Shown here: piece after piece, positions 3,798-59,778 of the stretch
Layout: each line of letters opens with the position of its first letter
Numbering within the stretch: position 1 is the first letter of the stretch
IMG/VR virus record: IMGVR_UViG_2974640449_000001
Span: 64,242 to 128,241 of that record
From: a virus
Lineage: Duplodnaviria > Heunggongvirae > Uroviricota > Caudoviricetes > Demerecviridae
Length of the DNA stretch: 64,000 nt
Strand: one strand, 5' to 3'
The notes under the pieces: model-generated
What the model was told of the DNA's origin: nothing
Databases searched by the model: none
The model's input: the letters and a program-made list of their open reading frames with translations, nothing else
Program-made: the position numbers and the translations under genes

Positions 3798-3826
3798 TTG
3801 CTTTTGTGAGTGAATTTCCGTATAAT
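3798..3826 (+). promoter_or_regulatory. early promoter TTGCTT-17-TATAAT
   Basis: aTTTGCTTttgtgagtgaatttccgTATAATtatctcataaattgaaaatggagatt. Confidence 0.55.
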
Positions 3827-3857
3827 TATCTCATAAATTGAAAATGGAGATTAAATT

Positions 3858-4253
3858 ATGTTTTTAGATTACCAATTCTGCGAGAACAACCAGATATTGA
3901 TTGAGAAAATGTATCACATGAGTTCTCTTTTTACCGGACTAATGGATAGTGAAGTAGACGACCTTAATCGTGACCTTGACGGTGCTCAAAATCAGTTAGT
4001 GATTACTGACAAAACTAAGCAACTGGCTGACATACTAGACGAATGTTACGAAAATAACATGGCTAATGACGATATTTTATCTCGTCTGTACTCAGCAGGA
4101 TTTAACCGTGGTTGTGTATTTGAGCTATCAATTACTAACCCTAGCGGTATTGGTCGCTACCTGCTATATGTATACGTAGAATCTGAGCTAGAGCTGAGAG
4201 CGTATGCAGAAGAACTAGCAGCCAAGGTATGGAGCAAGCATGAAGAAAATTAA
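3858..4253 (+). CDS. hypothetical protein
   Basis: Early promoter and conserved leader upstream (3798-3857). 131-aa ORF with RBS GGAGAT. Confidence 0.5.
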   Translation: MFLDYQFCENNQILIEKMYHMSSLFTGLMDSEVDDLNRDLDGAQNQLVITDKTKQLADILDECYENNMANDDILSRLYSAGFNRGCVFELSITNPSGIGRYLLYVYVESELELRAYAEELAAKVWSKHEEN

Positions 4254-4698
4254 CAGTTTCCGAGGGGAGTATGCGTTTCTCTCTAATATGTTTGAAGTGG
4301 TAATTGAACATGACGGCATTACTTATCCTTCTAGTGAGAACATGTATCAAGCGTTCAAAGCAGAAGAAAGACGAGAACGTAAACTGATTGCTAAGTTACC
4401 TCCAAACCAATCAAAGAACTACTGGAAATTTAATCCAGTTAAAAACCAGTTATTCCATTGTAATAAACTAGTTTACATGGAGAAATGTTTACGAGCTAAG
4501 TTTGCTGACCCACACCTAGCACACTTACTACTAGCAACCGGCGACGCAGAACTAATTGAAGGTAACTGGTGGGGCGATGGTTTCTGGGGAGTCTCGGATA
4601 AAACGGGTCACGGCCATAACCACCTAGGTAAGTTACTAATGAAGCTTCGGGAGGAGATTCGTGAAAGTATTGAAGGAAAACCTACTAAAGAATCCTAA
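4240..4698 (+). CDS. NADAR (YbiA/DUF1768) domain protein, N-glycosidase / ADP-ribosyl hydrolase family
   Basis: FRGEYAFLSNMF...YPSSENMYQAFKA, CLRAKFADPHLAHLLLATGDAELIE, NWWGDG...GHNHLGKLLMKLREEI align with E. coli YbiA blocks. Confidence 0.8.
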   Translation: MKKINSFRGEYAFLSNMFEVVIEHDGITYPSSENMYQAFKAEERRERKLIAKLPPNQSKNYWKFNPVKNQLFHCNKLVYMEKCLRAKFADPHLAHLLLATGDAELIEGNWWGDGFWGVSDKTGHGHNHLGKLLMKLREEIRESIEGKPTKES

Positions 4699-4891
4699 AT
4701 TAAAGTGTGGGGTAGGCTTGCGAACTGCCACACCTGATGAAGTAGCAGAAATGAAAAAGTGGCTAGATTTTCATGGTATTCAATATGTGCATCAAACCAC
4801 TCATCTAAAAACAGGCAATCCTTTACCTTACAATGGCTTGCTTATTATCAATATCATAGGAACTAAAAAGAATGCTAAAAATTTATACTGA
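4661..4891 (+). CDS. hypothetical protein (76 aa)
   Basis: ORF only; overlaps its neighbours. Confidence 0.3.
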   Translation: MKVLKENLLKNPKLKCGVGLRTATPDEVAEMKKWLDFHGIQYVHQTTHLKTGNPLPYNGLLIINIIGTKKNAKNLY

Positions 4892-5330
4892 CGGAGCTTG
4901 CCGTGGCAACCCAGGCGTAGGTGCTTGGGCTTTCGCTGTTTTCGAGGGCTGGGCTAAGAAAGGTACTAAAAGCGCAGCTATGCCACACACTACAAACAAT
5001 GAGGCTGAACTTACAGCCATTGTAAAAGCGTTAGAGTGGGCTATTCGTGCTAACCTATCTCAAGTAGAGATTCTTACAGACTCTAACTACGCATGTCAAG
5101 GTTATAAGACGTGGATGCACGGTTGGGTAAAGAAAGGCTGGGTGACTGCGGGAGGTACTCCAGTCAAGAATCTAGAACTTTGGAAGACTCTATATAATAT
5201 TTCTCAAAAAATTGATGTAACCATGACAAAAGTCAAAGGTCACTCTGGTGATGAAGGTAACGAGCTAGCAGATACTCTATGTAATTGTGCAATTGATGAG
5301 TATGAGCTACAGACAGTGGTGATGAAATAG
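4872..5330 (+). CDS. rnhA: ribonuclease HI
   Basis: MLKIYTDGACRGNPG, NNEAELTA, ILTDSNY, HSGDEGNELADTL: RNase H DEDD residues in the canonical order. Confidence 0.8.
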   Translation: MLKIYTDGACRGNPGVGAWAFAVFEGWAKKGTKSAAMPHTTNNEAELTAIVKALEWAIRANLSQVEILTDSNYACQGYKTWMHGWVKKGWVTAGGTPVKNLELWKTLYNISQKIDVTMTKVKGHSGDEGNELADTLCNCAIDEYELQTVVMK

Positions 5331-5339
5331 GAGTTAGTT

Positions 5340-5678
5340 ATGCAAAAGTATCCTAAAGGCACACTAGTGGAGATTGTCAAACATGAGTGGCGGCAAGACC
5401 TTATTGGTAAGCAGTTCGCTGTAGAAGACACCCAGGTAGGAAACCTAATAGTGGGTAAGGCAAGTACTCAAAGAGTGTTAACCAACGTATTAATGTACAG
5501 AACACCATTCATGTCAGCTCGTCCTAGCGGTAACAATAGAAATATATGGCTTACCGAGGAGTATTTAAGACCTGTACGTGGCGACTACCCGGAAGACGAG
5601 GGCTTCGAGTTTGATGAATCTAAGCTTGTATGGACGCCTACAGTAATTGTAGAAGACGGGGAGGCACTAGTAGTATGA
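5340..5678 (+). CDS. hypothetical protein
   Basis: 112-aa ORF, RBS GGAG. Confidence 0.5.
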   Translation: MQKYPKGTLVEIVKHEWRQDLIGKQFAVEDTQVGNLIVGKASTQRVLTNVLMYRTPFMSARPSGNNRNIWLTEEYLRPVRGDYPEDEGFEFDESKLVWTPTVIVEDGEALVV

Positions 5679-5855
5679 GTCCTTTCGTTTGGAACATCAA
5701 TCTCCTAATTTTCTGGCGTTTAGCATGGCTAGAAAAGCAGTCTGGAAAAGTGGTTATGGATGGGTGGGGTAATATAGGTAGACTATATTACCGTAAACAA
5801 ACCGACCCTGTAGGTTTCTACATCAAGCCTTTAGGCAAGAAAATTAAAAACCTAA

Positions 5856-5884
5856 TTGCTAAAGACTGAAAAACAACGTATAAT
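5856..5884 (+). promoter_or_regulatory. early promoter TTGCTA-17-TATAAT with full conserved leader
   Basis: aaTTGCTAaagactgaaaaacaacgTATAATagttccataaagttgagaaacggagatt. Confidence 0.65.
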
Positions 5885-5916
5885 AGTTCCATAAAGTTGA
5901 GAAACGGAGATTAAAA

Positions 5917-6123
5917 ATGATTTTACCAGAAGATATTCAACCTAAAACCCACTATACCGTATACATCGCTAAAGTGCCTTTCGGTGAGTTTCAGAAAGGC
6001 GACCCTGTGTTTGTGTACAAAACAATCGAAGGTCTAGGTGATTTAAAGGTACACAAAGGCGTCCCTATTGATGGTGACAAAGTTCATTACTTCTTTGACC
6101 ATGAACTAGATTTGGAGCAGTAA
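5917..6123 (+). CDS. hypothetical protein
   Basis: Promoter and leader at 5856-5916; 68 aa. Confidence 0.5.
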   Translation: MILPEDIQPKTHYTVYIAKVPFGEFQKGDPVFVYKTIEGLGDLKVHKGVPIDGDKVHYFFDHELDLEQ

Positions 6124-6125
6124 TT

Positions 6126-6392
6126 ATGATAAGCATGAATAAAGAGCCTGTTGTAGCCACTGGTTTTGAAGCAGTCGTCTGTAAGACCTGGGAAGGCTGG
6201 GATATGGTTGACACATGTTATCTCTATTTTGAGCAGGTAGTATTAACTGCACCATATGCAACAATGCTAGGTGTTAAAGAGATACCTTTTGTTGAATTTG
6301 ATCTAAACAACATGGTTGTACACTTTTTCTTAACCGATGAAGAAAACGCTAAACCAATCACCAAGAAATTACAACTTAGCGTATTAGATTAA
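6126..6392 (+). CDS. hypothetical protein
   Basis: 88-aa ORF, translationally coupled. Confidence 0.5.
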   Translation: MISMNKEPVVATGFEAVVCKTWEGWDMVDTCYLYFEQVVLTAPYATMLGVKEIPFVEFDLNNMVVHFFLTDEENAKPITKKLQLSVLD

Positions 6393-6400
6393 AAATCTAA

Positions 6401-6429
6401 TTGCTAAACATCGAAAAATTTAATATAAT
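6401..6429 (+). promoter_or_regulatory. early promoter TTGCTA-17-TATAAT
   Basis: aaTTGCTAaacatcgaaaaatttaaTATAATattcccatagtttgaaaac. Confidence 0.6.
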
Positions 6430-6467
6430 ATTCCCATAGTTTGAAAACAAAGAAAGGAAAAATCAAT

Positions 6468-6743
6468 ATGACTGAACAAAAAGTAACTCTAAAACCTGTA
6501 GCTGGCGACGCTCTTCTAATCGGTAAATACCAGTCAGGTGTAGACCGTAAGGGTAAACCTGTGTTCCGTTCAATGCCAAAAGGCAAAGAACCTTCAACTA
6601 TCGTGGAAGCGGTGTTTGAAGATGGTCGTGTTCGCTCTAAAGAAGGCGATGTATTTGAAGTTCGCCTGAACAAACGCCCAACAGTCATTAAGACTAAGCA
6701 AGGTGAAAAAGCACTACCTGCTCAATGGATTACTGTAGCGTAA
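6468..6743 (+). CDS. hypothetical protein
   Basis: Promoter 6401-6429. Start moved to ATG 6468 behind RBS AAAGGAAA. Confidence 0.5.
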   Translation: MTEQKVTLKPVAGDALLIGKYQSGVDRKGKPVFRSMPKGKEPSTIVEAVFEDGRVRSKEGDVFEVRLNKRPTVIKTKQGEKALPAQWITVA

Positions 6744-6910
6744 TGGCTAAAGTGCTTGTTGATGAGTCCCTACTCTGGGACTTAATTCACTCAAATATAC
6801 TACTTATGCACCTAGAAAACGAAGGTGTAGATAACTGGAGTGGTTATTACCATCCAGAAGACATTGATGAACAAACTGATAAATTATTGAAGGAAATTAA
6901 GCATGGCTAA
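6725..6910 (+). CDS. hypothetical protein (61 aa)
   Basis: ORF only. Confidence 0.35.
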   Translation: MDYCSVMAKVLVDESLLWDLIHSNILLMHLENEGVDNWSGYYHPEDIDEQTDKLLKEIKHG

Positions 6911-7163
6911 ACAACTAACTTCTGCTCAAAAAGCTGCTCGTCGTACTCACAAAGTTGCACAAACAGCTAAGAACAAGGCTGCTAAACGTGCTCGTCACGC
7001 TAAGGCACACCCTAATGACGCTCAAGTAGCTAAGGGTAAGTTCACTGAGCGTAAAGCCCCTCGTGTGAAAGGTAACTTTCGTAAGGTAAATAAAGCTTAC
7101 CGTGATGAAGCAGGTCACGTATTACCTGCTCCTAGCTTTGCTCCCATTGCAAAAGCTAAGTAA
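6903..7163 (+). CDS. highly basic Lys/Ala-rich protein (histone H1-like, putative nucleic-acid binding)
   Basis: 86 aa, about 30% K/R/A. Confidence 0.5.
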   Translation: MAKQLTSAQKAARRTHKVAQTAKNKAAKRARHAKAHPNDAQVAKGKFTERKAPRVKGNFRKVNKAYRDEAGHVLPAPSFAPIAKAK

Positions 7164-7305
7164 ATGGTTAGCAGGCTAAAACCTGCTGCTCCACCTGGTA
7201 TACGATACATTCCGGCTAGCTGCTGGAGTGTATCCACAGCAGCTAACTTAAACAAGAAAATGCAGATAAGGTATAAAGCAGAAAGATTCTATGTGAGGTA
7301 TAGAA

Positions 7306-8247
7306 ATGAACAACTTCGTAGCAAAACATTGCCGAACGTTTAACAAGGCAACTGTCCAACGTGACAGAACTAAATATCATCGTCCTAGCTCTAAGAGCCT
7401 AATGGATGAGTGGTTTGAAGACGAAAATGACGGGTTCGAGCACCCAGGAATGGTCGAGCCAAAGGAGCTTGAGACTCCTTCTATAAGCGGTAGCGTTTAT
7501 AAAAGAAGTTTCACTAACAAACAGGAGATAACTATGGAGCAAACTATTGCCCTACAGCAAGAAATTCATAACAAGTTATATGGTAACGTAGACCCTGACT
7601 TACTAGAAGTAAGTCCAGTGAGCCATAACCACTTAAACTGGGTTTTTGACCTAGAAACATATGCGACTTGTCAGAATGCCATCGTACCTGAGCTTTCAGC
7701 CGTAGCGTTCGATATTCTTTCAGGCGAAGTTTTTCATGAAGCCACGTTCCATCTTGATGTAGACTCTCAAGTTGCTCTGGGGCGCGAAGTTTCAGCGTCT
7801 ACGCTATCATTTTGGCTAATGCAGTCAGAAGAAGCTCGTATGAAAATGTTGCTCGCCGACCCTGAACACTGTCGCAATAACGGCCTACCAATGCCACTGC
7901 AAATTAGTGGAGCTATGGCACAACTGAGCCATATGATTAAAATAGTGTCAAAGACCTGGGCAGAGCAAACCGGTCTCAGCAAGGAACCTCTAGTATGGGG
8001 TAACGGTATTACTTTTGATTTAGGTAAGACTATCTCGTTGTTCGAAACAGCTCAAGTTCCATTGCCTTGGCAATTCTGGGCAGAGCGCGATGCTCGCACA
8101 TTAATGGACTTAGCCCCAGGCATCAAGAAAGCGTTCGGTAAGGACTTCCGTGGTGTACCTCATTACGGTCTTGACGACTGTAAACACGAGCTGCGTTACT
8201 TATCAGCTACTTACATTAAAATCTGGGAAATGAGCAAAGAAAGTTAA
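7306..8247 (+). CDS. DnaQ-like 3'-5' exonuclease (DEDDh family)
   Basis: WVFDLETY exo I motif and HYGLDDCKHELRY exo III (H..D) motif. Confidence 0.6.
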   Translation: MNNFVAKHCRTFNKATVQRDRTKYHRPSSKSLMDEWFEDENDGFEHPGMVEPKELETPSISGSVYKRSFTNKQEITMEQTIALQQEIHNKLYGNVDPDLLEVSPVSHNHLNWVFDLETYATCQNAIVPELSAVAFDILSGEVFHEATFHLDVDSQVALGREVSASTLSFWLMQSEEARMKMLLADPEHCRNNGLPMPLQISGAMAQLSHMIKIVSKTWAEQTGLSKEPLVWGNGITFDLGKTISLFETAQVPLPWQFWAERDARTLMDLAPGIKKAFGKDFRGVPHYGLDDCKHELRYLSATYIKIWEMSKES

Positions 8248-8255
8248 AAACTTAA

Positions 8256-8284
8256 TTGCTCAAACACTAAAAACTTTATATAAT
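8256..8284 (+). promoter_or_regulatory. early promoter TTGCTC-17-TATAAT
   Basis: aaTTGCTCaaacactaaaaactttaTATAATatattcctaaattgagaaaac. Confidence 0.6.
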
Positions 8285-8322
8285 ATATTCCTAAATTGAG
8301 AAAACAGAAGAAGGAAAACAAA

Positions 8323-9028: not shown

Positions 9029-9058
9029 ATTGCTCTCTGCTAAACTTCTTGATATAAT
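9029..9058 (+). promoter_or_regulatory. early promoter TTGCTC-18-TATAAT (no ORF immediately downstream; hairpin gaagaaaacctcttc follows)
   Basis: aaTTGCTCtctgctaaacttcttgaTATAATgattatctac. Confidence 0.5.
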
Positions 9059-9127
9059 GATTATCTACTTTGAAGAAAACCTCTTCATCAAATTTGAAAG
9101 CATTTGGTACTTAAATTAAAAATTGTC

Positions 9128-9156
9128 TTGCTAAGTGCTTTGAAACTTGATATAAT
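9128..9156 (+). promoter_or_regulatory. early promoter TTGCTA-17-TATAAT with leader
   Basis: cTTGCTAagtgctttgaaacttgaTATAATagttccataaattgataaggaattgaag. Confidence 0.6.
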
Positions 9157-9186
9157 AGTTCCATAAATTGATAAGGAATTGAAGAT

Positions 9187-10104: not shown

Positions 10105-10404
10105 AATGAAGAAACAGTATCCTTGCTCAAATGGATACTCACTGAGGGACGAGCAATCCCAATATGTGCGGGCTGTCTAGCATATGCAGCTTTCGGTTGA
10201 AGCCACATGTTTAGTAATGCGAACCCATTAGCTGAGGCTTGGGAGCTCGCCCCTTACTCGGTTAAGTCCAAGAACCGCTGTGGAATATGTAAAGTCGTGA
10301 TTCCTTCGGGATAGCGCCTTCGGAAGTTATCTTCTGACTGCTAGCAAGTCCATAGCTATAAACCGTGACGAAAGGCAGCTCACGGGGCAGTGCAAAAGAT
10401 AATT
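10105..10404 (+). ncRNA. candidate structured non-coding RNA inside the tRNA block (about 300 nt)
   Basis: No ORF and no cloverleaf. Multiple hairpins: AGTATCC...GGATACT, TTCG tetraloops (gcagctttcggttgaagc, ccttcgggatagcgccttcggaag). Flanked by tRNA-Pro and tRNA-Leu. Confidence 0.35.
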
Positions 10405-10408
10405 TAAT

Positions 10409-10774: not shown

Positions 10775-10803
10775 TTGCTTAAAACGTTAAATCAACGTAT
10801 AAT
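10775..10803 (+). promoter_or_regulatory. early promoter (TTGCTT-17-TATAAT) with conserved leader fused directly to tRNA-Thr
   Basis: ggaaTTGCTTaaaacgttaaatcaacgTATAATagttccataaagttgagaaac. Confidence 0.6.
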
Positions 10804-10827
10804 AGTTCCATAAAGTTGAGAAACAAA

Positions 10828-11189: not shown

Positions 11190-11498
11190 TCTTTTGGGTA
11201 CTAAGCGTAACATATAACTATGTAGTGAAAGTAGCTTGTTACAATCCTAGGTGAATGCGCTAATACACTCTAGACCCAAATACAATACGGAGAGTCACTA
11301 CCGTACTAATCAAAAGTGTGAGCTTGAAAATTACTCTATTGTGAACGTGCTATGCTTCATCGGAAGCCTCTAACGACGGATGTACTTACCGCTGCATTTG
11401 CAAGTAACCAGTTTCATTGTATCATAAAGCCTCCAAGTAGTGGTTATGACCGAGAATAAGCCTAATAACGAGGTCGGGTATAGAGGATAAAATATTTC
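11190..11498 (+). ncRNA. candidate non-coding / structured RNA region in the tRNA block (about 300 nt, no ORF, no tRNA)
   Basis: ORF-free; sits between tRNA-Gln and tRNA-Val. Confidence 0.25.
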
Positions 11499-15899: not shown

Positions 15900-15921
15900 G
15901 CCTCCTTCTTAAAAGTTTTAT

Positions 15922-15950
15922 TTGCTAAACTCTCTTATTTAACGTATAAT
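15922..15950 (+). promoter_or_regulatory. early promoter TTGCTA-17-TATAAT
   Basis: tTTGCTAaactctcttatttaacgTATAATtattacataaatt. Confidence 0.55.
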
Positions 15951-15981
15951 TATTACATAAATTAATGAGAGAGGTTATCAA

Positions 15982-16382: not shown

Positions 16383-16411
16383 TTGCTAAACTGCTTTAAA
16401 GTCTGTATAAT
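16383..16411 (+). promoter_or_regulatory. early promoter TTGCTA-17-TATAAT with leader, upstream of tRNA-Cys/His
   Basis: aaTTGCTAaactgctttaaagtctgTATAATagttccataaagttga. Confidence 0.6.
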
Positions 16412-16437
16412 AGTTCCATAAAGTTGATTAAACAAAT

Positions 16438-17532: not shown

Positions 17533-17561
17533 TTGCGAAGTAGGTCAATCTCAAGTATAAT
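17533..17561 (+). promoter_or_regulatory. early promoter TTGCGA-17-TATAAT
   Basis: aaTTGCGAagtaggtcaatctcaagTATAATatatacataaattgaag. Confidence 0.5.
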
Positions 17562-17591
17562 ATATACATAAATTGAAGAAGGAAACAGAAT

Positions 17592-28624: not shown

Positions 28625-28653
28625 TTGTCAAACATAAAAAATTTTCATATAAT
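28625..28653 (+). promoter_or_regulatory. early promoter TTGTCA-17-TATAAT
   Basis: aaTTGTCAaacataaaaaattttcaTATAATatataaag. Confidence 0.55.
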
Positions 28654-28677
28654 ATATAAAGAAATTAAGGAGAGCTT

Positions 28678-29139: not shown

Positions 29140-29168
29140 TTGCTAAACGCTGTTAAAAAGCGTATAAT
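29139..29168 (+). promoter_or_regulatory. early promoter TTGCTA-18-TATAAT with conserved leader
   Basis: aaTTGCTAaacgctgttaaaaagcgTATAATagttacataaagtt. Confidence 0.6.
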
Positions 29169-29195
29169 AGTTACATAAAGTTAGGAGATTGTCTT

Positions 29196-30236: not shown

Positions 30237-30253
30237 TTAATTAAAACTTGACT

Positions 30254-30281
30254 TGCTTAACTGACTTAATTTTTATATAAT
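30254..30281 (+). promoter_or_regulatory. early promoter TTGCTT-16-TATAAT
   Basis: acTTGCTTaactgacttaatttttaTATAATatacgcatagtttgaaaggagatt. Confidence 0.55.
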
Positions 30282-30308
30282 ATACGCATAGTTTGAAAGG
30301 AGATTAGC

Positions 30309-30783: not shown

Positions 30784-30968
30784 AACAACAAGACCGCTTC
30801 TGGTTATTTACCTCATTCCTAGTAGTGTTTGCATACTGTTTAAATGCTGTAAACACAGGAGAAATCGGTGCAGCTTATCAAATGACCACATTTGCGTGGG
30901 GATTTTGGGACTTCTTCCGCTGTATTGGTGACTATGAGTATGACGTTAAGGGGATTTCGTGTCAGTAG
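30768..30968 (+). CDS. small membrane protein (66 aa)
   Basis: Hydrophobic core FWLFTSFLVVFAYCL. Confidence 0.35.
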   Translation: MVLSVKQQDRFWLFTSFLVVFAYCLNAVNTGEIGAAYQMTTFAWGFWDFFRCIGDYEYDVKGISCQ

Positions 30969-31330
30969 AATTAAAAGAATTTTTAGAAGAAAAAATTAAG
31001 CCAACGTATCACGCAGAAGATAAGTCATTTCCTGCACACATTCAGGAAGAATATCTGACTAAGGAAGGTTGGCTAGATAAACACTACATATGCAAAAGCC
31101 TAAAACTGCATATGTCAACTGCTACTTTTCGTAAAGTAGTTAAGCAAATTTTTGGTGAATCCCAATTCACAATACTTCCAACGGAAACCGAACTAACAAA
31201 AGAAGAGTTCCTAGAACATTATGAGTTCGAGAAATTCCCATTTGGTCGTGGCTGGGTTGGATACATGTACGGATTAACCGGTAAGGTAGCAAGACGTGAA
31301 GATATACTTGGGTGGATTTGCAGTAATTAG
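30959..31330 (+). CDS. hypothetical protein (123 aa)
   Basis: ORF. Confidence 0.45.
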   Translation: MSVELKEFLEEKIKPTYHAEDKSFPAHIQEEYLTKEGWLDKHYICKSLKLHMSTATFRKVVKQIFGESQFTILPTETELTKEEFLEHYEFEKFPFGRGWVGYMYGLTGKVARREDILGWICSN

Positions 31331-32548: not shown

Positions 32549-32578
32549 ATTGCTAAACAGCGTTAAATTCTCTATAAT
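32549..32578 (+). promoter_or_regulatory. early promoter TTGCTA-18-TATAAT
   Basis: aaTTGCTAaacagcgttaaattctcTATAATatacatataaattaaagagaagga. Confidence 0.55.
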
Positions 32579-32610
32579 ATACATATAAATTAAAGAGAAG
32601 GAAGATTAAA

Positions 32611-33834: not shown

Positions 33835-33864
33835 TTGCTATAGCGGGTGAAAACCCGCTATAAT
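33835..33864 (+). promoter_or_regulatory. early promoter TTGCTA-18-TATAAT with a hairpin in the spacer
   Basis: gTTGCTAtagcgggtgaaaacccgcTATAATaatcacataaattga. Confidence 0.55.
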
Positions 33865-33903
33865 AATCACATAAATTGATAAAACAACCAAAGGAAATAC
33901 TTA

Positions 33904-36955: not shown

Positions 36956-36984
36956 TTGCTAAAGAACGTTAAAAACCGTATAAT
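36956..36984 (+). promoter_or_regulatory. early promoter TTGCTA-17-TATAAT with conserved leader
   Basis: aaTTGCTAaagaacgttaaaaaccgTATAATagttacataaagttgagaaacggagat. Confidence 0.65.
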
Positions 36985-37017
36985 AGTTACATAAAGTTGA
37001 GAAACGGAGATAGTCTT

Positions 37018-38205: not shown

Positions 38206-38234
38206 TTGCCAAAGCAAGGAAGCTTTGATATAAT
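38206..38234 (+). promoter_or_regulatory. early promoter TTGCCA-17-TATAAT
   Basis: aaTTGCCAaagcaaggaagctttgaTATAATatctgtagaaattgaggagatt. Confidence 0.5.
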
Positions 38235-38259
38235 ATCTGTAGAAATTGAGGAGATTGTT

Positions 38260-40506: not shown

Positions 40507-40537
40507 GGTTGCTTCGGCAACCTTTTTTACGTATAAT
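40507..40537 (+). promoter_or_regulatory. terminator hairpin GGTTGCTTCGGCAACC-T6 whose loop supplies the -35 (TTGCTT) of an early promoter (TATAAT at 40532)
   Basis: aGGTTGCTTCGGCAACCttttttacgTATAATatatacataaattaaagagaagga. Confidence 0.6.
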
Positions 40538-40567
40538 ATATACATAAATTAAAGAGAAGGAAACAAC

Positions 40568-41910: not shown

Positions 41911-41920
41911 TTGCTTAACT

Positions 41921-41949
41921 AGCTAAATTTACGTATAATATATTCATAA
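41921..41949 (+). promoter_or_regulatory. early promoter TTGCTT-17-TATAAT
   Basis: aaTTGCTTaactagctaaatttacgTATAATatattcataaattaaagagaagga. Confidence 0.55.
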
Positions 41950-41971
41950 ATTAAAGAGAAGGAAATAATCT

Positions 41972-44305: not shown

Positions 44306-44334
44306 TTGCTTCGGCAAGCCTTTTAACGTATAAT
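44306..44334 (+). promoter_or_regulatory. terminator hairpin GGCTTGCTTCGGCAAGCC providing the -35 of an early promoter with full leader
   Basis: GGCTTGCTTCGGCAAGCCttttaacgTATAATagttacataaagttgagaaacggagattg. Confidence 0.65.
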
Positions 44335-44366
44335 AGTTACATAAAGTTGAGAAACGGAGATTGAAT

Positions 44367-44827: not shown

Positions 44828-45196
44828 ATGAAGGCATTTGAAGTAAACCTACAAACTGAGCCAGTAATCGTATTCTGCGACCCAGAAAAAGCACAGCAAT
44901 TTTTCATTGACGACAATGCTAAAGATGCTTGGCGTAATTACTTTTGGGGCTGCGACGATTTAGGAGATTTAGCAGAGAACCTTGCTAAAATGTTCTACCA
45001 CCAAAAGGACTGCCTAGGCGACCCGTTTATTGAAGGTTTTGGCGTAGCTAAGTTCAACACCACCAAGAAAGTGTGGGAAATTGAAGATTCACATTTCGGT
45101 AAGATTATTATCGAGATGGAAGACATAGACCACCATTGGGATGTGCAAGACGTTAGCAAAAACCTTAATAAAGAACTTGCTCGTTTGGTAAAATAA
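44828..45196 (+). CDS. hypothetical acidic protein (122 aa)
   Basis: RBS AAGGTGAAGATATG. Confidence 0.45.
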   Translation: MKAFEVNLQTEPVIVFCDPEKAQQFFIDDNAKDAWRNYFWGCDDLGDLAENLAKMFYHQKDCLGDPFIEGFGVAKFNTTKKVWEIEDSHFGKIIIEMEDIDHHWDVQDVSKNLNKELARLVK

Positions 45197-45205
45197 ACGT
45201 ATAAT
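45177..45205 (+). promoter_or_regulatory. early promoter TTGCTC-17-TATAAT with full conserved leader
   Basis: cTTGCTCgtttggtaaaataaacgTATAATagttacataaagttgagagacggagattg. Confidence 0.6.
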
Positions 45206-45236
45206 AGTTACATAAAGTTGAGAGACGGAGATTGTC

Positions 45237-47323: not shown

Positions 47324-47340
47324 TTAAGATAAAAACGGGG

Positions 47341-47369
47341 TTGCTAAAACAGCCCCGTTCAAGTATAAT
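47341..47369 (+). promoter_or_regulatory. hairpin (ACGGGGTTGCTAAAACAGCCCCGT) overlapping the -35 of an early promoter with leader
   Basis: ggggTTGCTAaaacagccccgttcaagTATAATagttacataaagttgagaaac. Confidence 0.6.
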
Positions 47370-47555
47370 AGTTACATAAAGTTGAGAAACGCACGAAAGA
47401 TTATGAAAAAGCTTTTCTAACCTGCGACGGTCAGGTCAAGTGGCTTCAACGACGAGAGAAAGAACTCCAGAAAGAGTTGAAGCAAGTAAAAACACAATTA
47501 GGTCTTGCAGTACACGCTAGAGCGGCTGCCAAACTAAAACTAAGAGAGAATAAAG

Positions 47556-48236: not shown

Positions 48237-48249
48237 TTAAAATAAAGGG

Positions 48250-48278
48250 TTGCTTCGGCAGCCCTTTTCGCGTATAAT
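48250..48278 (+). promoter_or_regulatory. terminator hairpin GGGTTGCTTCGGCAGCCC providing the -35 of an early promoter with leader
   Basis: GGGTTGCTTCGGCAGCCCttttcgcgTATAATagttacataaagttgagaaag. Confidence 0.65.
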
Positions 48279-48311
48279 AGTTACATAAAGTTGAGAAAGA
48301 GAGAAAAGCTT

Positions 48312-49042: not shown

Positions 49043-49071
49043 TTGTCAAAACATCGAAATCTTTATATAAT
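49043..49071 (+). promoter_or_regulatory. early promoter TTGTCA-17-TATAAT with leader
   Basis: atTTGTCAaaacatcgaaatctttaTATAATatatacataaattgaaacggagattg. Confidence 0.6.
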
Positions 49072-49101
49072 ATATACATAAATTGAAACGGAGATTGTCT
49101 T

Positions 49102-50434: not shown

Positions 50435-50463
50435 TTGCTTAGGTTTGTAAATTCTTATATAAT
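50435..50463 (+). promoter_or_regulatory. early promoter TTGCTT-17-TATAAT with leader
   Basis: agTTGCTTaggtttgtaaattcttaTATAATatatgtataaattgaaacggagatag. Confidence 0.6.
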
Positions 50464-50494
50464 ATATGTATAAATTGAAACGGAGATAGTCTTT

Positions 50495-51034: not shown

Positions 51035-51063
51035 TTGCTTAACTAACTAAATTCTTATATAAT
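51035..51063 (+). promoter_or_regulatory. early promoter TTGCTT-17-TATAAT with leader; near-identical copy at 51710-51738
   Basis: aaTTGCTTaactaactaaattcttaTATAATatatacataaattgaaacggagatag. Confidence 0.65.
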
Positions 51064-51094
51064 ATATACATAAATTGAAACGGAGATAGTCTTT

Positions 51095-51699: not shown

Positions 51700-51709
51700 A
51701 AATCTAGAA

Positions 51710-51738
51710 TTGCTTAACTAACTAAATTCTTATATAAT
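51710..51738 (+). promoter_or_regulatory. early promoter, duplicate of 51035
   Basis: The 48-bp block ttgcttaactaactaaattcttatataatatatacataaattgaaacggagatagtct is repeated. Confidence 0.65.
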
Positions 51739-51767
51739 ATATACATAAATTGAAACGGAGATAGTCT

Positions 51768-53587: not shown

Positions 53588-53616
53588 GTTGCTCTCGTGG
53601 TATAAATCCCTTATAA
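53588..53616 (+). promoter_or_regulatory. early promoter TTGCTC-17-TATAAT
   Basis: gTTGCTCtcgtggtataaatcccTTATAATatacaggaagaaggag. Confidence 0.5.
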
Positions 53617-53639
53617 TATACAGGAAGAAGGAGAAAACT

Positions 53640-55228: not shown

Positions 55229-55258
55229 CTTGACAGTGAAACAAAAATCCCTTATAAT
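55229..55258 (+). promoter_or_regulatory. consensus promoter TTGACA-18-TATAAT with no downstream ORF
   Basis: tcTTGACAgtgaaacaaaaatcccTTATAATataactgtactctagag. Confidence 0.55.
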
Positions 55259-55264
55259 ATAACT

Positions 55265-55400
55265 GTACTCTAGAGATATTTCTAGCAGTGCGAGGCTCAG
55301 GACAACCTTTTCCAGTCTTGATACTGGGAGTGTGGGTGTCCTGGGTAAGATGCCTCGCAGCTGGGAAAGTTATGGGGGAGTATTAACTGAAGAAAACTGA
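55265..55400 (+). ncRNA. candidate small structured RNA transcribed from promoter 55229
   Basis: No ORF. Nested complementary segments GCGAGGC/GCCTCGC, CAGGACAAC/GTGTCCTG, CCAGTCTTGATACTGG. Confidence 0.35.
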
Positions 55401-55499: not shown

Positions 55500-56020
55500 T
55501 TTAGCACCTATAATATTATCTCTAGAATTTGCACCTATAATATTATCTCTAGAATTTGCACCTATGATTTGGCTTGTTATGATGCGAAGCATTGAGTCTA
55601 GCCATGATTCCCCATGTCAATTCTAAAGCATAGGAATTGCACCTAATTGTATAGGTTATTTCGATAATAGTAAAAGACGGATTGACACCGGTTCAAGGAG
55701 CGACCCCCGTAATTGTCAATTGGTTTTTTCAAAAATCTGCCCCAAACGCCCCAAAACTTTATTTTCCTCCATAAAACCCACCAAATAGCACCAAAATCTC
55801 CATATATCTCTAGAATTCGCACCTATCTCATATCCCTAGCACCTATCAATTTTGCACCTATCAATTTTGCACCTACCCCAATAGCGGCATGTTTTGTGCG
55901 CAGCACGAGTCTAGCCGCAAACCCCCATGTCAATTTTGCACCTATAGAATTTGCACCTATAGAATTTGCACCTACATGTATCACTTTTGCACCAATCGGA
56001 TTTGCACCCGCAGGCGCAGA
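55500..56020 (+). repeat. iteron-like array: about 13 copies of a TTTGCACCTAT(a/c) core, including 28-bp and 19-bp tandem units, plus two copies of a GAGTCTAGCC...CCCATGTCAATT block
   Basis: ttTGCACCTATaatattatctctagaa x2.5 at 55500-55575; GCACCTATcaatttt x2 at 55840-55880; tttGCACCTATagaa x2 then variants at 55925-56015. Confidence 0.75.
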
Positions 56021-56086
56021 GGATTAGAGATTACTAATAAAGTATGCCCTAAATTAGGGTTCACTACATTAGGGATTTCTAATAGA

Positions 56087-56170
56087 CGTCTGGATGGCTA
56101 TACGTCCAGATGGCTAGAAGTCTAGAAGTCCAGATGGCTATACGTCCAGATGGCTAGAAGTCCGTATGCC
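56087..56170 (+). repeat. tandem direct repeats (about 22-bp unit tacgtccagatggctagaagtc, 3 or more copies)
   Basis: cgtctggatggctatacgtccagatggctagaagtctagaagtccagatggctatacgtccagatggctagaagtccg. Confidence 0.7.
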
Positions 56171-56199
56171 ATACCGTATAAAATATGGCACGATTTTTG

Positions 56200-56320
56200 C
56201 TTATTAAAAAGTTATCCACAACTGTATATTTATACATGGCTCTAAAACGCTCTATACAGAGTTATCCACAACCTTATCCACCGCAAAACTACTGTATATT
56301 TATACAGTGCTTTTCAGGTA
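56200..56320 (+). promoter_or_regulatory. DnaA-box cluster (TTATCCACA x2, TTATCCACC) interleaved with CTGTATAtttATACAG palindromes; putative replication-origin element
   Basis: DnaA boxes at 56212-56220, 56262-56270 and 56274-56282; palindromes at 56222-56238 and 56291-56308. Confidence 0.55.
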
Positions 56321-56557
56321 GCAGATTATTCCGAATACCGTTTAAAGCTCTTGTAAGCCTCGCTAACAGCATCCTAGCGTTGTAGCAATACCCTAGCAAG
56401 GGGTAAGCCCTAAACAGCCCACACGTAGTACATGCAAGAACCATGCCAACCTGCCTGACGGGCGCGCCGAAATGATAACTATTCTCATTTGCCCGTATAC
56501 AGTACGCCATACGGTAAAAGGTCAAACAAAACGGCGTACCGTGACGCCGTAACAGTT

Positions 56558-56695
56558 TTAATTTTTTAGTCGCTCTACTACCCAATCGCAGCGGCGGTCT
56601 AACTTATCTAATTTTTCGTCAATAACTCGCTGATTCTCTAGTATCAGCTTTTGATTGTTAACGACTAGCTGCAACAGCTCTATAATCTTTTTCAT
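56558..56695 (-). CDS. small coiled peptide (45 aa), paralog of 48874-49026; not in ORF track
   Basis: ATGA-coupled to the upstream minus-strand gene; MKKIIELLQLVVNNQKLILENQRVIDEKLDKLDRRCDWVVERLKN. Confidence 0.3.
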   Translation of the reverse strand: MKKIIELLQLVVNNQKLILENQRVIDEKLDKLDRRCDWVVERLKN

Positions 56696-56916
56696 CGCGG
56701 CTCAAAATCTTTTACTATTTCTAGAAATTCACGGATAGTAATTCCATCGCATCGTATTTCTTCATCCGAGTGTTGAGTATGGCGTACTGTAAACTTGTCG
56801 TATTCTACTTGCTCAATTTCTGAGACTAGCACACCTTTATAGTATAAACCACGTTTTTTGTGTGGCTCATAAACTTGTTGCAAGAATGATACTAACATTT
56901 CACTAGGTCTTAACAT
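56692..56916 (-). CDS. hypothetical protein (74 aa)
   Basis: Minus-strand ORF in a translationally coupled chain. Confidence 0.45.
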   Translation of the reverse strand: MLRPSEMLVSFLQQVYEPHKKRGLYYKGVLVSEIEQVEYDKFTVRHTQHSDEEIRCDGITIREFLEIVKDFEPR

Positions 56917-57158
56917 TAGTCTATCCCCTGTTCACTGATAAACTCACCTATAGCAAACATGCGCTCGCTATCGTTCGGGTAAGCGTCTGAATCAGCCATT
57001 TCAACAATAATAGCTAAATTAGATAAGCCTTGTTTAGCGATTACTAAATCACGGAGCATGTTTTGAGTTACTACGTCTAGCGGATTATGTATCAAACGTG
57101 TATTGAGCATATGCTCAATACGTGCTAGTGCTTCCTGACTTTGTTTTATAGTAGCCAT
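56916..57158 (-). CDS. hypothetical acidic protein (80 aa)
   Basis: Coupled ATGA overlaps on both sides. Confidence 0.45.
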   Translation of the reverse strand: MATIKQSQEALARIEHMLNTRLIHNPLDVVTQNMLRDLVIAKQGLSNLAIIVEMADSDAYPNDSERMFAIGEFISEQGID

Positions 57159-57352
57159 TACCAGGTAGCCTCCAATTGATAAAGCTTCTCAATTACATCG
57201 AATTGCTCGCCTTGCTCATTTTGCCAAACTTGCCCAAATTCGGTGTTTTCTACGTGCTTCATTGCCATAGGTATTGTGTAATATTGCATTTCCCCCATAA
57301 ATGCAATATTACACATCCAGACTTGCCCTAGGGTTTCGACATGTACTTTCAT
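57158..57352 (-). CDS. hypothetical acidic protein (64 aa)
   Basis: Coupled. Confidence 0.4.
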   Translation of the reverse strand: MKVHVETLGQVWMCNIAFMGEMQYYTIPMAMKHVENTEFGQVWQNEQGEQFDVIEKLYQLEATW

Positions 57353-57520
57353 TTTTTAGCCTCCATTAGCTCGCCTAATGAGATTACTATAACCATTGCT
57401 AGAAATGCTCCAGTCATTTTTCAATCACCAAAATTTTGTTATAGTCCATACGTACAGTAAAAAACGGCTTGCCGTTTCTAACCGCCCACAATAGGGCGGT
57501 AGCGTAGTTGTCAAACTCCA

Positions 57521-57841
57521 TTAGACTTTTAACCAACCATTAACAAACGTTGCGCCTTCATAAATAGAACGCCATGTTAATAAATCAGCTCTAGCGTATT
57601 GAAAAAGCATACCGCCATTAGTTGCGCCCTTAGCAAAAGCAATGGCATATGTCAATACTTTTGCTTTTAAAATTTCTTCGACTGACTCAAACAAACTAAT
57701 ATGGGTTGTCAGGTCAAAATGATACTCTTTGTTTGACAAAAAGCATTGCGCCATTTCCATGCGCTTGCTGATAGAAGTGTCAGCATTCAATTGGTAAGCC
57801 GTGCTTACTACTGGAGTAGTTAGATATTGTTTGTATTCCAT
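57521..57841 (-). CDS. hypothetical protein (106 aa)
   Basis: Minus-strand ORF; RBS present. Confidence 0.45.
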   Translation of the reverse strand: MEYKQYLTTPVVSTAYQLNADTSISKRMEMAQCFLSNKEYHFDLTTHISLFESVEEILKAKVLTYAIAFAKGATNGGMLFQYARADLLTWRSIYEGATFVNGWLKV

Positions 57842-57900
57842 TTTGTTGCCCTCGCTTTCTAGCGGTAGTTAGTGGGGACTTTCGTCCCCCCGTTGATTAA

Positions 57901-58284
57901 TTAGTGCGCCATAATGCAATCAGGGTTTTCCCCGATTACCGTATATTCTTCAATCGCACGCTTACCAACACTTTCCCAAGATTGGTCATTTTTTGTTTTA
58001 TTAGCTACACCGTGTAGGTAATAGCCGTTACCAGTATCACGCTCTAATGAGAATGGTTTACCCATATCAAAAGCATTATTATAAAAGTGATGTTCCCAAG
58101 TACCTTCGACATCAAACCAGCGCCACATATAATGCTCGAACATAGCTTTCATTTTGTCTAGTGCTAGCTGACATTCAACCTCGCTGATAATATCAGCCTC
58201 AAAACCGTTGCGAATAATGGCAACGGCTTTATTCCAACCTAGTGAATCAATGGTATCAGACAAGACAAGAAAATCAATTTTCAT
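57901..58284 (-). CDS. hypothetical protein (127 aa)
   Basis: Start moved to the ATG at 58284 behind RBS GAGAGG (track start 58332). Confidence 0.45.
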   Translation of the reverse strand: MKIDFLVLSDTIDSLGWNKAVAIIRNGFEADIISEVECQLALDKMKAMFEHYMWRWFDVEGTWEHHFYNNAFDMGKPFSLERDTGNGYYLHGVANKTKNDQSWESVGKRAIEEYTVIGENPDCIMAH

Positions 58285-58392
58285 GGTAAAACCTCTCGCC
58301 AAAATCGGTGGCGGTATCCGTTTAGGCATCAATTGCCTAGGTCTTTATAATACTAAAACCTAGGCAGGATGTAAAGTGATTTAGCTCACATT

Positions 58393-58728
58393 TTACGATG
58401 TATAGTGAAAATCTACTTGGTCTATACCAATTTCACGCCATACCATAGAACTTGTTTCAAGTCCATAGTTATCTAGCATATCTGATAAATTGGCTAGTTC
58501 GTCTAGGTCGCAATAGCCCTCGATACCCATATCAGAGTTATAGAACATCATACCGTAGGCAGGATGAATCATAACGGCTAACTGAGAATCGTTATCAATA
58601 TACCATATGGTATTTTCAGGGTCTTCATTAAATGCGTTCCCGTCTTCCTTAGTAACAAGGATTATTGAGTCTAGACTCAATAGTGTTGGTGTTTCGGTAC
58701 AGTTAAAAGCCATTATTTCAATCTCCAA
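58393..58728 (-). CDS. hypothetical strongly acidic protein (111 aa)
   Basis: RBS TTGGAGATTGAAATAATG on the minus strand; D/E-rich. Confidence 0.45.
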   Translation of the reverse strand: MEIEIMAFNCTETPTLLSLDSIILVTKEDGNAFNEDPENTIWYIDNDSQLAVMIHPAYGMMFYNSDMGIEGYCDLDELANLSDMLDNYGLETSSMVWREIGIDQVDFHYTS

Positions 58729-59049
58729 TACGGGTAAAAACCTACCGCCATAGCGGTAATAAACATTACTGATTCAAACATACTATGCCTACCTTGTCAA
58801 ATAGTTTTTTCATGGTAGAAGCCGAGGCGATAAACTCGCCAGTGTCGATACTTACACACCACCAAATTACATCAAAGAAAATACGATACATTTTACCGCC
58901 TCCGTTGTTTGGGTAGGTCTATATTTACTCATATTCTAGCCCACTTGTCTAATAACATTTAGTTATATAAAACGATTCTGGCAACGCCAGGCGTTATAAG
59001 CGCTGTAAGCCATTCTGAGAGGTTCTAACAAAAAGCCTTACTTTAATAT

Positions 59050-59180
59050 GTCTAGGTTGTGGATAACCGCTCACAATGGATTCTAGGGGCAGGAAACGCC
59101 ATTCTATATCGGATAAGCTGTGATTTAGGGTAGATAACTTCCATTTTCCTGTTGATAAGTTGTGGATATACAGTAGATAA
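59050..59180 (+). promoter_or_regulatory. second DnaA-box cluster in inverted orientation (TGTGGATAA, TGTGGATAT, GATAAG variants)
   Basis: 59058-59066 TGTGGATAA is the reverse complement of TTATCCACA; 59161-59169 TGTGGATAT; ggataagctgtg at 59111. Confidence 0.5.
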
Positions 59181-59424
59181 CCAGTATTATTAGAGATTGC
59201 TAATGTGAATAAGTCTGTTGATAAAAAGTTGGCACGAAAATTTCCATAGAACAAAGTCAAATAAAAATTCGCTATATAATATAAACAAAAATTCTTTGAC
59301 AAATAAAAATCCTTCGTTCTAGTTCTATTCACAAAAGTGCATGAATATGCAGTTTTTAGGGCAAAAGTGCATAAACCATTTAGTAATGCAATGGTATGGC
59401 TAAGGGCTAAAATCGCTTAGAATC

Positions 59425-59470
59425 GCATACAGAGCGTTTTAAAGGTATGTATAAATATACAGTAGTTTTT
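59425..59470 (+). repeat. inverted copy (about 85% identity) of the 56216-56310 palindrome/DnaA element
   Basis: The reverse complement aaaactactgtatatttatacatacctttaaaacgctctgtatgc aligns with 56216-56258 and 56283-56308. Confidence 0.55.
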
Positions 59471-59749
59471 AAGTTGGCATGATTTTTGAGGGTATGACAA
59501 AGTTCACATTTTATATATACAAGTTTGACTTTTCATTCTAGCTATGGTAGACGCGCGCCCGTTTCCTTATATTTATAGGGCAAAAATACCTGATAGGCAA
59601 AACCTATCAATCTAGTGTTTTTTAAAGATTTAAACGATTAGACTAATTTTCTCAATTCGCTATTATATACCCATACCAACGAGACAGGGCAGCAACAAAA
59701 CCCTATCAAGTTGAGTATAGAAAGACTGAAAAGTTTTTCAAAAAAGTAG

Positions 59750-59778
59750 TTGACAAGCCAAACGGCTTTTGAGATACT
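59750..59778 (+). promoter_or_regulatory. promoter TTGACA-17-GATACT upstream of the pre-early-like genes
   Basis: gTTGACAagccaaacggcttttgaGATACTactaacg; followed at 59858-59890 by the perfect inverted repeat GTTAACCGA..TCGGTTAAC. Confidence 0.4.

Follow-up and report, generated by a model that had tools for sequence, protein, structure and literature searches.

The promoter-plus-leader module that recurs through the 64,000-nt stretch of DNA analysed here (the window) is the standard early-gene promoter class of T5-like phages. The window is a 100% match to bases 64242-128241 of Vibrio phage Ceto (NC_042094), the right half of the genome of a T5-like phage of the family Demerecviridae. The Ceto repeat is genuine but ordinary, and it belongs to a class that is already known: early promoters with a conserved transcribed part have been recognised in coliphage T5 since the 1980s. 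At a probability of roughly 0.8, we consider the Ceto modules to be early-class sigma-70 promoters of a T5-like phage, used by host RNA polymerase, with activity, start site and timing predicted from homology to T5.

Distribution and architecture of the repeated promoter

The pattern TTGCT-N18-TATAAT, allowing at most one mismatch, matched 27 times in the window as compared to 3.1 +/- 1.8 times in shuffled sequences, and a position matrix gave 27 matches above 20 bits, whereas none of 20 shuffles scored higher than 8.4 bits; on the minus strand of the window the matrix gave zero matches. Inspection left 28 true copies, all on the plus strand between 3798 and 53640, so the earlier note was right that the repeat is real but put it too high at about 35 copies. 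The -35/-10 pair is present with at most one mismatch in 25 of these, with TTGTCA as the -35 in two, and with an 18-bp spacer in one. The prediction that the modules are promoters is supported. A site at 59750-59778, formerly counted as a member, is a different promoter (TTGACA-17-GATACT) that lacks the leader and lies in the terminal repeat, the pre-early region.

A scan of the whole genome added about seven sites to these 28, which all belong to the rightward early region. The additional sites are on the minus strand in the leftward early (replication) region, and none fell in the late structural genes or the 8301-bp terminal repeats. Read against the annotation, the class keeps to early genes, the tRNA region among them, and the pre-early and late regions have none. 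The module had been said to organise nearly every transcription unit, which holds for rightward early genes but not for the block at 17.6-28.6 kb or the terminal repeat at 55700-64000, neither of which contains any module. Most copies sit 0-38 nt downstream of the preceding gene, mostly without a terminator. These promoters carry no annotation in the genome record.

Taking ranges from the -35 to the last leader base, all on the plus strand, modules precede gp80 (3798..3857, found by pattern and matrix scan), gp92 (8256..8322, matrix scan), gp95 with a nine-tRNA cluster (9128..9186), gp137 (17533..17591), gp153 (29140..29195), gp154 (30253..30308), gp163 (32550..32610), gp177 (41911..41971), gp182 (45177..45236, its -35 within the end of gp181) and gp194 (50435..50494). 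Those recovered by the matrix scan also include the modules before gp88 (6401..6467, variant start ATAGTTTGA), gp170 (38206..38259, -35 TTGCCA), gp191 (49043..49101, -35 TTGTCA) and gp152 (28625..28677, likewise TTGTCA, with an upstream terminator at 28591-28610). Several copies are joined to hairpins. For example, a terminator hairpin (15888-15907) lies upstream of the module before gp128 (15922..15981), another (40506-40523) is built into the -35 and spacer of that before gp175 (40509..40567), and the 18-bp spacer of the module before gp164 (33835..33903) contains a hairpin at 33839-33862. Hairpins overlap the -35 before gp179 (44306..44366; hairpin 44302-44321), before gp188 (48250..48311; 48244-48267), and in a module (47341..47402; 47334-47359) with a 5-codon mini-ORF downstream and a leader of 180 nt before gp186. 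Two members are weak: a tandem promoter of 27 bits located 98 bp upstream of the next module (9030..9065), and one of 25 bits before gp202 (53589..53639, matrix scan).

The layout is an A-tract at -45 to -41, a -35 of TTGCTa, a 17-bp spacer, a perfect TATAAT, a discriminator, and a predicted start at the A of CATAAA(G)TTGA, in a fixed geometry 7 nt past the -10 hexamer. Among 25 copies, A occupies 18-22 at each of positions -45 to -42 and 13 at -41, a tract resembling an UP element. The 6-nt, A/T-rich discriminator reads ATATAC/ATATTC or AGTTAC/AGTTCC in most copies. A ribosome-binding site and then a start codon, or else a tRNA, follows 16-33 nt past the predicted start. Downstream of the -10 hexamer, and outside the rule by which copies were selected, there are about 15.8 bits of conservation. 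The core CATAAA(G)TTGA is present in 20 of the 28 copies, and we found no occurrence of it detached from the promoter; the weak members at 9030 and 53589 lack the conserved transcribed part altogether. Purines make up 74% of the transcribed part from +1 to +20 and A/T makes up 80% from +1 to +11, and the first 45 nt are nearly unstructured (-2.35 kcal/mol as compared to -6.41 for random 45-mers, p = 7e-10).

An identical 21-nt leader had been reported in about half of the copies. In fact it is exact in only three, before gp86 (5856..5916), gp168 (36956..37017) and gp179, with one mismatch in another and three mismatches in two more; the elements that do recur widely are the shorter core and GGAGAT, the latter at 12 of the 24 genes that come first after a module. 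In several sub-families identity extends to the start codon as GGAGAT[T/A]GTCTT-ATG. As the earlier note observed, the leader also abuts tRNA genes: a module with an 18-nt leader (10775..10827, +1 at 10810) directly drives tRNA-Thr, which begins at 10828, and one with a 20-nt leader (16383..16437, +1 at 16418) directly drives tRNA-Cys/His, beginning at 16438. Both copies keep the first 10-15 nt and have lost the Shine-Dalgarno part. Indeed, this retention, together with the absence of the core apart from a promoter, agrees with the view that the leader is more than a ribosome-binding context.

The leader as the transcribed part of a T5 early promoter

The annotated early-region promoters of T5 (NC_005859) share the layout of Ceto, AAAAA / TTGCTt / 17 bp / TATAAT / ATATTc / ATAAATTGA, and the named examples include P11, P13a/b, P14a/b, P15a-c, P16-17 and PD/E33, of which P13b, P14a, P15b and P16-17 have a tRNA or stable-RNA gene downstream rather than a coding gene. 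The initial transcribed consensus, ATAAATT(T)GA, is identical in the two phages. The scan of relatives that had been proposed found the class, with its leader conserved, in each: the Ceto matrix identified 17 sites in bases 1-45000 of T5 (the early region), its counts in the Vibrio phages Thalassa, VPT02 and the distant D30 were 27, 23 and 20, and every site was on the early-gene strand. At orthologous sites in Thalassa and VPT02 the module is mostly retained. Because T5 has the same architecture and the matrix finds sites in T5 and the Vibrio phages, the block called a leader is what an already known class of promoters transcribes first, and no extra function, such as the one beyond promoter strength that had been suggested, is required to account for it.

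T5 early promoters (PN25, P10a and others) resemble those of Ceto in the A-tract near -43, the -35 of TTGCT(T/A), the perfect TATAAT, the 17-bp spacer with its A/T-rich 3′ half, the A/T-rich discriminator, the start at the A of CATAAA, and the transcribed ATAAATT(T)GA with a purine-rich Shine-Dalgarno sequence after it. In both phages many copies are spread across the early region, some driving tRNA or stable RNA and some overlapping terminators. The host is a Vibrio for Ceto and E. coli for T5; the discriminator is often AGTTAC in Ceto but ATATT in T5; the Ceto leader often contains an inserted G (ATAAAGTTGA), unlike T5; the Shine-Dalgarno-proximal part is ACGGAGAT in Ceto and GAGAGGA in T5; and five Ceto copies, unlike T5, have a terminator hairpin inside the -35 and spacer.

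PN25 and other T5 early promoters are the subject of Gentz & Bujard 1985, as cited in PMC7472727. In PN25 TATAATAGATTCAT spans -12 to +2, which places +1 at the A of CATAAA, and the T5 early promoters have a common ATATT discriminator (PMC7472727). For PN25 the limiting step is escape, which is fastest with the native A/T-rich transcribed sequence, and an "anti" transcribed sequence yields about 10-fold less full-length RNA (PMC12464699). By analogy, the near-consensus upstream elements of the Ceto modules would bind host RNA polymerase very tightly, and the leader, as the A/T-rich, purine-rich transcribed part ATAAA(G)TTGA(GAAAC) of the promoter, would let it exit quickly rather than cycle abortively. 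The 3′ half is a conventional Shine-Dalgarno sequence within a 5′ UTR that is short and free of structure, and it is dropped ahead of tRNAs. Transcription would probably be re-initiated again and again along the rightward early region, since the copies mostly follow closely on the preceding gene with no terminator between.

This escape model needs only an A/T-rich, purine-rich sequence, and it does not obviously explain why CATAAAtTGA is fixed from T5 to the Vibrio phages; the fixed motif could reflect sequence-specific reading by polymerase or a phage factor. For the identity that reaches the ATG in several sub-families, copying between modules or a constraint from translation is a better account than escape.

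Translation, RNA processing and exchange between copies

A possible but doubtful account of the block is that it is a standardised translation-initiation leader, an unstructured A-rich 5′ UTR with optimal Shine-Dalgarno and spacing that acts as a translational enhancer. Leaders are indeed less structured than other translation start regions (-2.35 vs -4.25 kcal/mol, p = 0.001), GGAGAT at half of the 24 coding genes directly after a module compares with 6 of 80 other genes, the block ending in GTCTT-ATG is recurrent, and the part adjacent to the Shine-Dalgarno varies by host lineage (ACGGAGA in Vibrio phages, GAGAGG in T5). However, the most conserved part, +1 to +10, is retained in both copies that drive tRNAs, where Shine-Dalgarno and ORF are absent, T5 promoters of tRNAs and stable RNAs likewise keep it, and 80 internal genes are translated without the block. 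A translational role, as the earlier note proposed, is therefore plausible for the 3′ half of the leader only. The other RNA-level proposal, that the 5′ end of each transcript carries an RNase processing site or a nut/put-like antitermination signal, is very improbable. Terminators between modules are few, so that read-through transcripts would carry internal copies that could be cut, but the block is fixed 7 nt past a perfect -10 hexamer, as expected of a primary start, it is short and without a stable fold, it matched no Rfam family, and it never occurs without a promoter.

The modules also exchange sequence. The pair before gp195 (51035..51094) and gp197 (51710..51767) had been described as perfect 48-bp duplicates; the identity is perfect but extends over 60 bp (51033-51092 and 51708-51767). 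With VPT02 as the outgroup, the spacer of the 51710 module is derived in Ceto and identical to that of its neighbour 675 bp away, which points to gene conversion and makes this module a converted copy that arose in the Ceto lineage. The leader subtype has switched at orthologous sites 29140, 49043 and 51035, and subtypes are clustered by position. The promoter copies thus homogenise one another. The genes flanking the 51035/51710 pair are unrelated, and the whole-cassette duplications once invoked for a recombination hot spot are not there.

Exchange of this kind recalls the promoter-early stem-loops (PeSL) of T4-type phages, in which promoter and stem-loop are associated with flanking indels and mini-circles (PMC2839356, PMC4122927). 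On that model the shared 60-80 bp would be portable homology for gene swap, deletion and insertion, generating a mosaic early region. In Ceto as in PeSL, short, strong sigma-70 early promoters recur among small variable genes, some of the promoters carry a terminator stem-loop, and near-identical copies stand beside unrelated genes. Homology boundaries against Thalassa and VPT02 fall inside modules in 21 of 98 cases, although modules span 4.3% of the region, and they gather at module edges. Yet breakpoints concentrate at gene junctions generally (77/98), and junctions with a module were not hit significantly more often than those without (15/27 vs 38/97, Fisher p = 0.19; density 7.1 vs 7.2 per kb). 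The same was true in five closer Thalassavirus genomes (9/17 vs 20/43, 9/16 vs 22/44, 9/17 vs 17/40; p = 0.57-0.78). Boundaries at edges are also expected from selection on a conserved promoter, a stable hairpin is present at only 9 of the 28 modules rather than at every one, and the phage family is unrelated to that of PeSL. We therefore regard a mobile cassette or hot spot as unlikely.

A candidate code for a phage regulator

Binding of a phage factor to the element, another of the roles first suggested, is a possible candidate, and Ceto encodes a homologue of gpT5.026, the RNA-polymerase-binding protein of T5, in gp157 (30959..31330, plus strand). Both proteins match phrog_4215 (E = 3.6e-43 for gp157 and 2.6e-74 for gpT5.026), the direct match between them being weak, and gp157 may be a trans-acting partner of the promoters. 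The discriminator and first transcribed bases would then be a signature through which early promoters are lowered at late onset, an added role compatible with the early-promoter reading but somewhat unlikely in our judgement. In T5, gpT5.026 weakens the contact that polymerase makes at -5/+2, early transcripts go up when the protein is lost, and the main difference between early and late promoters is the discriminator (PMC7472727). The motif is kept in sequence, beyond composition, between E. coli and Vibrio phages. Neither the pre-early promoter at 59750 nor PH22 or P12 of T5 carries it. Against this, the published in vitro effects of gpT5.026 are minor and it makes no contact with DNA (PMC7472727), and Ceto has two discriminators, AGTTAC and ATATAC, which argues against a single strict recognition site. 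The bolder proposal, that A(G/T)(T/A)T(A/C)C-ATAAA(G)TTGA, held from T5 to distant Vibrio phages, is a class code for gp157 or another phage factor, is speculative and on balance improbable. If it were true, the early-to-late transcription switch of T5-like phages, which still lacks an explanation, would have its cis element in the discriminator and the first ten transcribed bases.

Promoters of the T5 early type in Vibrio phage Ceto

A 10-kb piece of the window matched Vibrio phage Ceto (Demerecviridae, Ermolyevavirinae, Cetovirus; MG649966/NC_042094) at 100%, and the whole Ceto genome was put together from retrieved pieces for layout and scanning. The window forms the final 64 kb of this T5-like genome of 128,241 bp, such that subtracting 64241 from a record position gives the window position. 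A terminal repeat of 8301 bp carrying pre-early genes (A1, A2 and dmp homologues) lies at both genome ends, and window positions 55700-64000 are the right repeat, identical to record bases 1-8301. Late structural genes occupy the + strand at 10.5-36.8 kb of the genome and early replication genes the - strand at 36.9-62.3 kb, while window positions 1-55,000 constitute a long rightward early region of nucleotide metabolism genes, 25 tRNAs and many small ORFs. The Ceto record carries no annotation of the promoters described here, and no description of them was found in the literature on Vibrio T5-like phages.

A search of the window for TTGCT-N18-TATAAT with at most one mismatch returned 27 matches, as compared to 3.1 +/- 1.8 in shuffled sequences. 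On inspection, 28 copies were judged genuine, all on the + strand between 3798 and 53640: 25 with at most one mismatch, two with the -35 hexamer TTGTCA (28625 and 49043; copies are named by the start of the -35) and one with an 18-bp spacer (33835). A position matrix gave 27 matches above 20 bits, all of them on the + strand, whereas 20 shuffles peaked at 8.4 bits. About 20 positions 3' of the -10 hexamer are also conserved (~15.8 bits in total), and this counts as independent evidence because only the two hexamers had been used to choose the copies. The repeated module reported in an earlier note from the sequence alone is real, and its reading as a promoter was correct, but the numbers were overstated. 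About 35 copies had been claimed for the window, in a series ending at 59778; however, the element at 59750-59778 is TTGACA-17-GATACT without the leader, inside the terminal repeat, and a TTGACA-type promoter at 55230 was likewise rejected for want of a leader. Similarly, the 21-nt leader said to be identical in about half of the copies is exact in three, carries one mismatch in one and three mismatches in two, and the widespread part is instead a core, CATAAA(G)TTGA, present in 20 of 28 copies. In the whole-genome scan about seven further modules lie on the - strand within the leftward early region, giving ~35 early promoters genome-wide, and none was found in late genes or terminal repeats.

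In most copies the -35 begins 0-38 nt past the stop codon of the preceding gene, and twice it lies inside that gene. An A-tract at -45 to -41 precedes the -35, which is followed by 17 bp, the -10, a 6-nt A/T-rich discriminator (AGTT[A/C]C or ATAT[A/T]C) and CATAAA, whose A occupies the +1 position. The ATG or tRNA 5' end then follows 16-33 nt past this +1, a geometry fixed across copies, and GGAGAT lies upstream of 12 of the 24 coding genes directly after a module. A hairpin is found near only 9 of 28 copies; a terminator-promoter unit in every copy was accordingly rejected, and the promoters probably add for the most part to read-through transcription rather than bounding isolated units.

This architecture closely follows that of coliphage T5, whose RefSeq record has annotated promoters that we read in the transcription direction. 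The T5 early promoters take the form AAAAA..TTGCT(T/A)..N17..TATAAT ATATTC ATAAATTGA(T)GAGAGG; several overlap annotated terminators, and four (P13b, P14a, P15b and P16-17) have a tRNA or stable-RNA gene next, with no coding gene. A matrix built from Ceto copies alone found, above 20 bits, 17 sites in T5 bases 1-45000, 27 in Vibrio phage Thalassa and 23 in Vibrio phage VPT02, as well as 20 sites above 14 bits in the distant Vibrio phage D30, whose homologue of gpT5.026 (the T5 RNA-polymerase-binding protein) is only 33% identical. All of these matches lie on the early-gene strand. The Vibrio phage and T5 consensus sequences are nearly superimposable to about +10 and split by host thereafter, with ACGGAGA in Vibrio phages versus GAGAGG in T5. 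Indeed, every defining sequence-level feature of the T5 early promoter class was tested and found in Ceto. Judged by sequence, a Vibrio phage of the Demerecviridae thus carries the T5-type class of early promoters; from this homology we infer their activity, start site and timing. No known system is closer than the early promoters of T5, which are long known, and the Ceto set adds a member to that class, not a new kind of element.

The transcribed leader

In the T5 early promoter PN25, +1 is the A of CATAAA and TATAATAGATTCAT covers -12 to +2; the ATATT discriminator is common to T5 early promoters and is what chiefly sets them apart from late promoters (PMC7472727). The open complex of PN25 is extremely stable, and this promoter is limited at escape, which is fastest with its native A/T-rich, purine-rich transcribed sequence; an 'anti' swap of +3 to +20 lowers full-length RNA ~10-fold and raises abortive synthesis (PMC12464699). 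The transcribed part of the Ceto modules is 74% purine over its first 20 bases and 80% A/T over its first 11. Since the Ceto leaders match PN25 in composition and nearly in sequence, their 5' half would be transcribed sequence that promotes escape from a promoter bound very tightly, and their 3' half would be a standard Shine-Dalgarno sequence within a UTR that lacks structure. The folding energy of the first 45 nt is only -2.35 kcal/mol, compared with -6.41 in random 45-mers (p = 7e-10) and -4.25 in regions around other translation starts.

Two copies, 10775 and 16383, directly drive tRNA-Thr (at 10828, from +1 at 10810) and tRNA-Cys (at 16438, from +1 at 16418), confirming that the leader can abut tRNAs. 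These copies retain +1 to +10 or +1 to +15 and have lost the Shine-Dalgarno part, showing that something other than translation maintains the leader's 5' half. The fusion varies among relatives: a small ORF sits between leader and tRNA at the counterpart of 16383 in Thalassa and VPT02 and at that of 10775 in Thalassa, whereas the 10775 counterpart in VPT02 runs directly into the tRNA, as in Ceto. The difference is therefore one small ORF, present or absent. The tRNA region also holds two ~300-nt unannotated gaps, at 10105-10408 and 11190-11498, in which Rfam gave no match; the equivalent T5 region encodes stable RNAs of unknown function according to the T5 record.

The strict conservation of the leader had been taken to suggest a function beyond promoter strength, which appears to be mostly the known role of transcribed sequence in this class. 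A translational enhancer could apply to the 3' half of the leader but not to the 5' half. An RNA-processing site or antitermination element has no support, the block having a fixed promoter-proximal position and lacking a stable fold, Rfam match or detached copies: Rfam found only tRNAs, the core motif is missing from all 80 internal genes, and a search of both strands for the core apart from a promoter gave only one-mismatch chance matches, by which an independent RNA element was rejected. GGAGATTGTTATG may resemble the T4 RegA operator, and ATAAAGTT may resemble the 16S segment pairing with the T7 epsilon enhancer, in the same sense as that segment and hence not complementary to it. A protein reader is also conceivable. 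Ceto gp157 (30959-31330), annotated as hypothetical, shares a PHROG family with gpT5.026 (phrog_4215; E = 3.6e-43 and 2.6e-74, respectively). The T5 protein binds RNA polymerase, weakens its contact at -5/+2 and reduces early transcription (PMC7472727). Conserved in sequence across hosts, the discriminator and first transcribed bases could be a class code read by a gpT5.026-family protein.

Exchange between copies and mosaicism

There is clear evidence that module copies exchange sequence. With VPT02 as outgroup, the spacer of Ceto 51710 is derived and the same as its neighbour's, which points to gene conversion; leader subtypes cluster by position and have switched at orthologous sites 29140, 49043 and 51035. 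A perfect duplicate at 51035/51710, earlier given as 48 bp, is in fact 60 bp long, and this identity (51033/51708) adjoins unrelated genes. Whole-cassette duplications, cited in the earlier note as support for a recombination hot spot generating mosaicism, were not found: the proteins after 49043, 50435, 51035 and 51710 are unrelated (15-25% identity in forced alignment), and the repeated unit is the 60-71 bp module alone.

Comparison of module boundaries with breakpoints between relatives did not sustain the hot-spot proposal either. Modules cover 4.3% of the sequence and contain 21 of the 98 boundaries of homology with Thalassa and VPT02, but gene junctions as a whole account for 77 of the 98. 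Boundaries were seen at 15 of 27 module-bearing junctions versus 38 of the 97 that lack a module (p = 0.19), at equal density per kb, and module junctions were not enriched among five Thalassavirus genomes of 93-97% identity (p = 0.57-0.78). Modules as hot spots were therefore rejected for lack of enrichment over the all-junction baseline, which weakens the recombination idea. Its functional analogue is found in the PeSL cassettes of T4-type phages (PMC2839356, PMC4122927), but two of their defining features, a stem-loop in every copy and breakpoint enrichment, are not shared by the Ceto modules. About half of the early-region gene junctions (3000-54000) are homology breakpoints, even at 93-97% identity; gene-by-gene mosaicism is very dense and independent of the promoters.

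Hairpins, repeats and the reach of the T5 design

Five promoters have a G+C-rich hairpin embedded in the -35 and spacer (33839-33862, 40506-40523, 44302-44321, 47334-47359 and 48244-48267). In three of these, TTGC-TTCG-GCAA is both the -35 hexamer and a UUCG-tetraloop stem, followed in two by a T run. The Thalassa counterpart of 44306 keeps the hairpin with compensatory changes (GGGGCTAC ttcg GTAGCCCC) but lacks a -35 and -10, so that the terminator seems to be the older layer. At the Thalassa counterpart of 45177 (L006 ~48476-48520), the promoter was lost by a clean ~31-nt internal deletion of -10 through +15, leaving the Shine-Dalgarno sequence and the -35 within the preceding gene. Downstream of the 47341 module, at 47403-47555, a five-codon mini-ORF (ATGAAAAAGCTTTTCTAA) and 135 nt without an annotated gene precede gp186; the VPT02 counterpart of this module drives a normal ORF.

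Immediately left of the right terminal repeat, 55230-55385 comprises a perfect TTGACA-17-TATAAT followed by a very stable 115-nt hairpin (-52.9 kcal/mol, z = -4.6) where no ORF is annotated, a candidate small RNA. Short tandem repeats of the unit TTTGCACCTAT(A), with 27-nt and 15-nt periods (55504-55565, 55839-55875 and 55935-55974), span the terminal-repeat boundary at 55700 and look like protein-binding sites.

The practical value of this analysis is modest: a promoter map, with predicted start sites, of an unannotated phage genome, comprising 28 early promoters in the window and ~35 in the genome. Natural variants such as AGTTAC/ATAAAGTTGA and ATATAC/ATAAATTGA could be used to test escape models or to build strong Vibrio promoters. 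Demerecviridae with hosts as distant as Escherichia and Vibrio conserve the early-promoter design of T5 together with its transcribed part. This points to sequence-specific constraint on the transcribed sequence, a constraint that bears on promoter escape models based on PN25.
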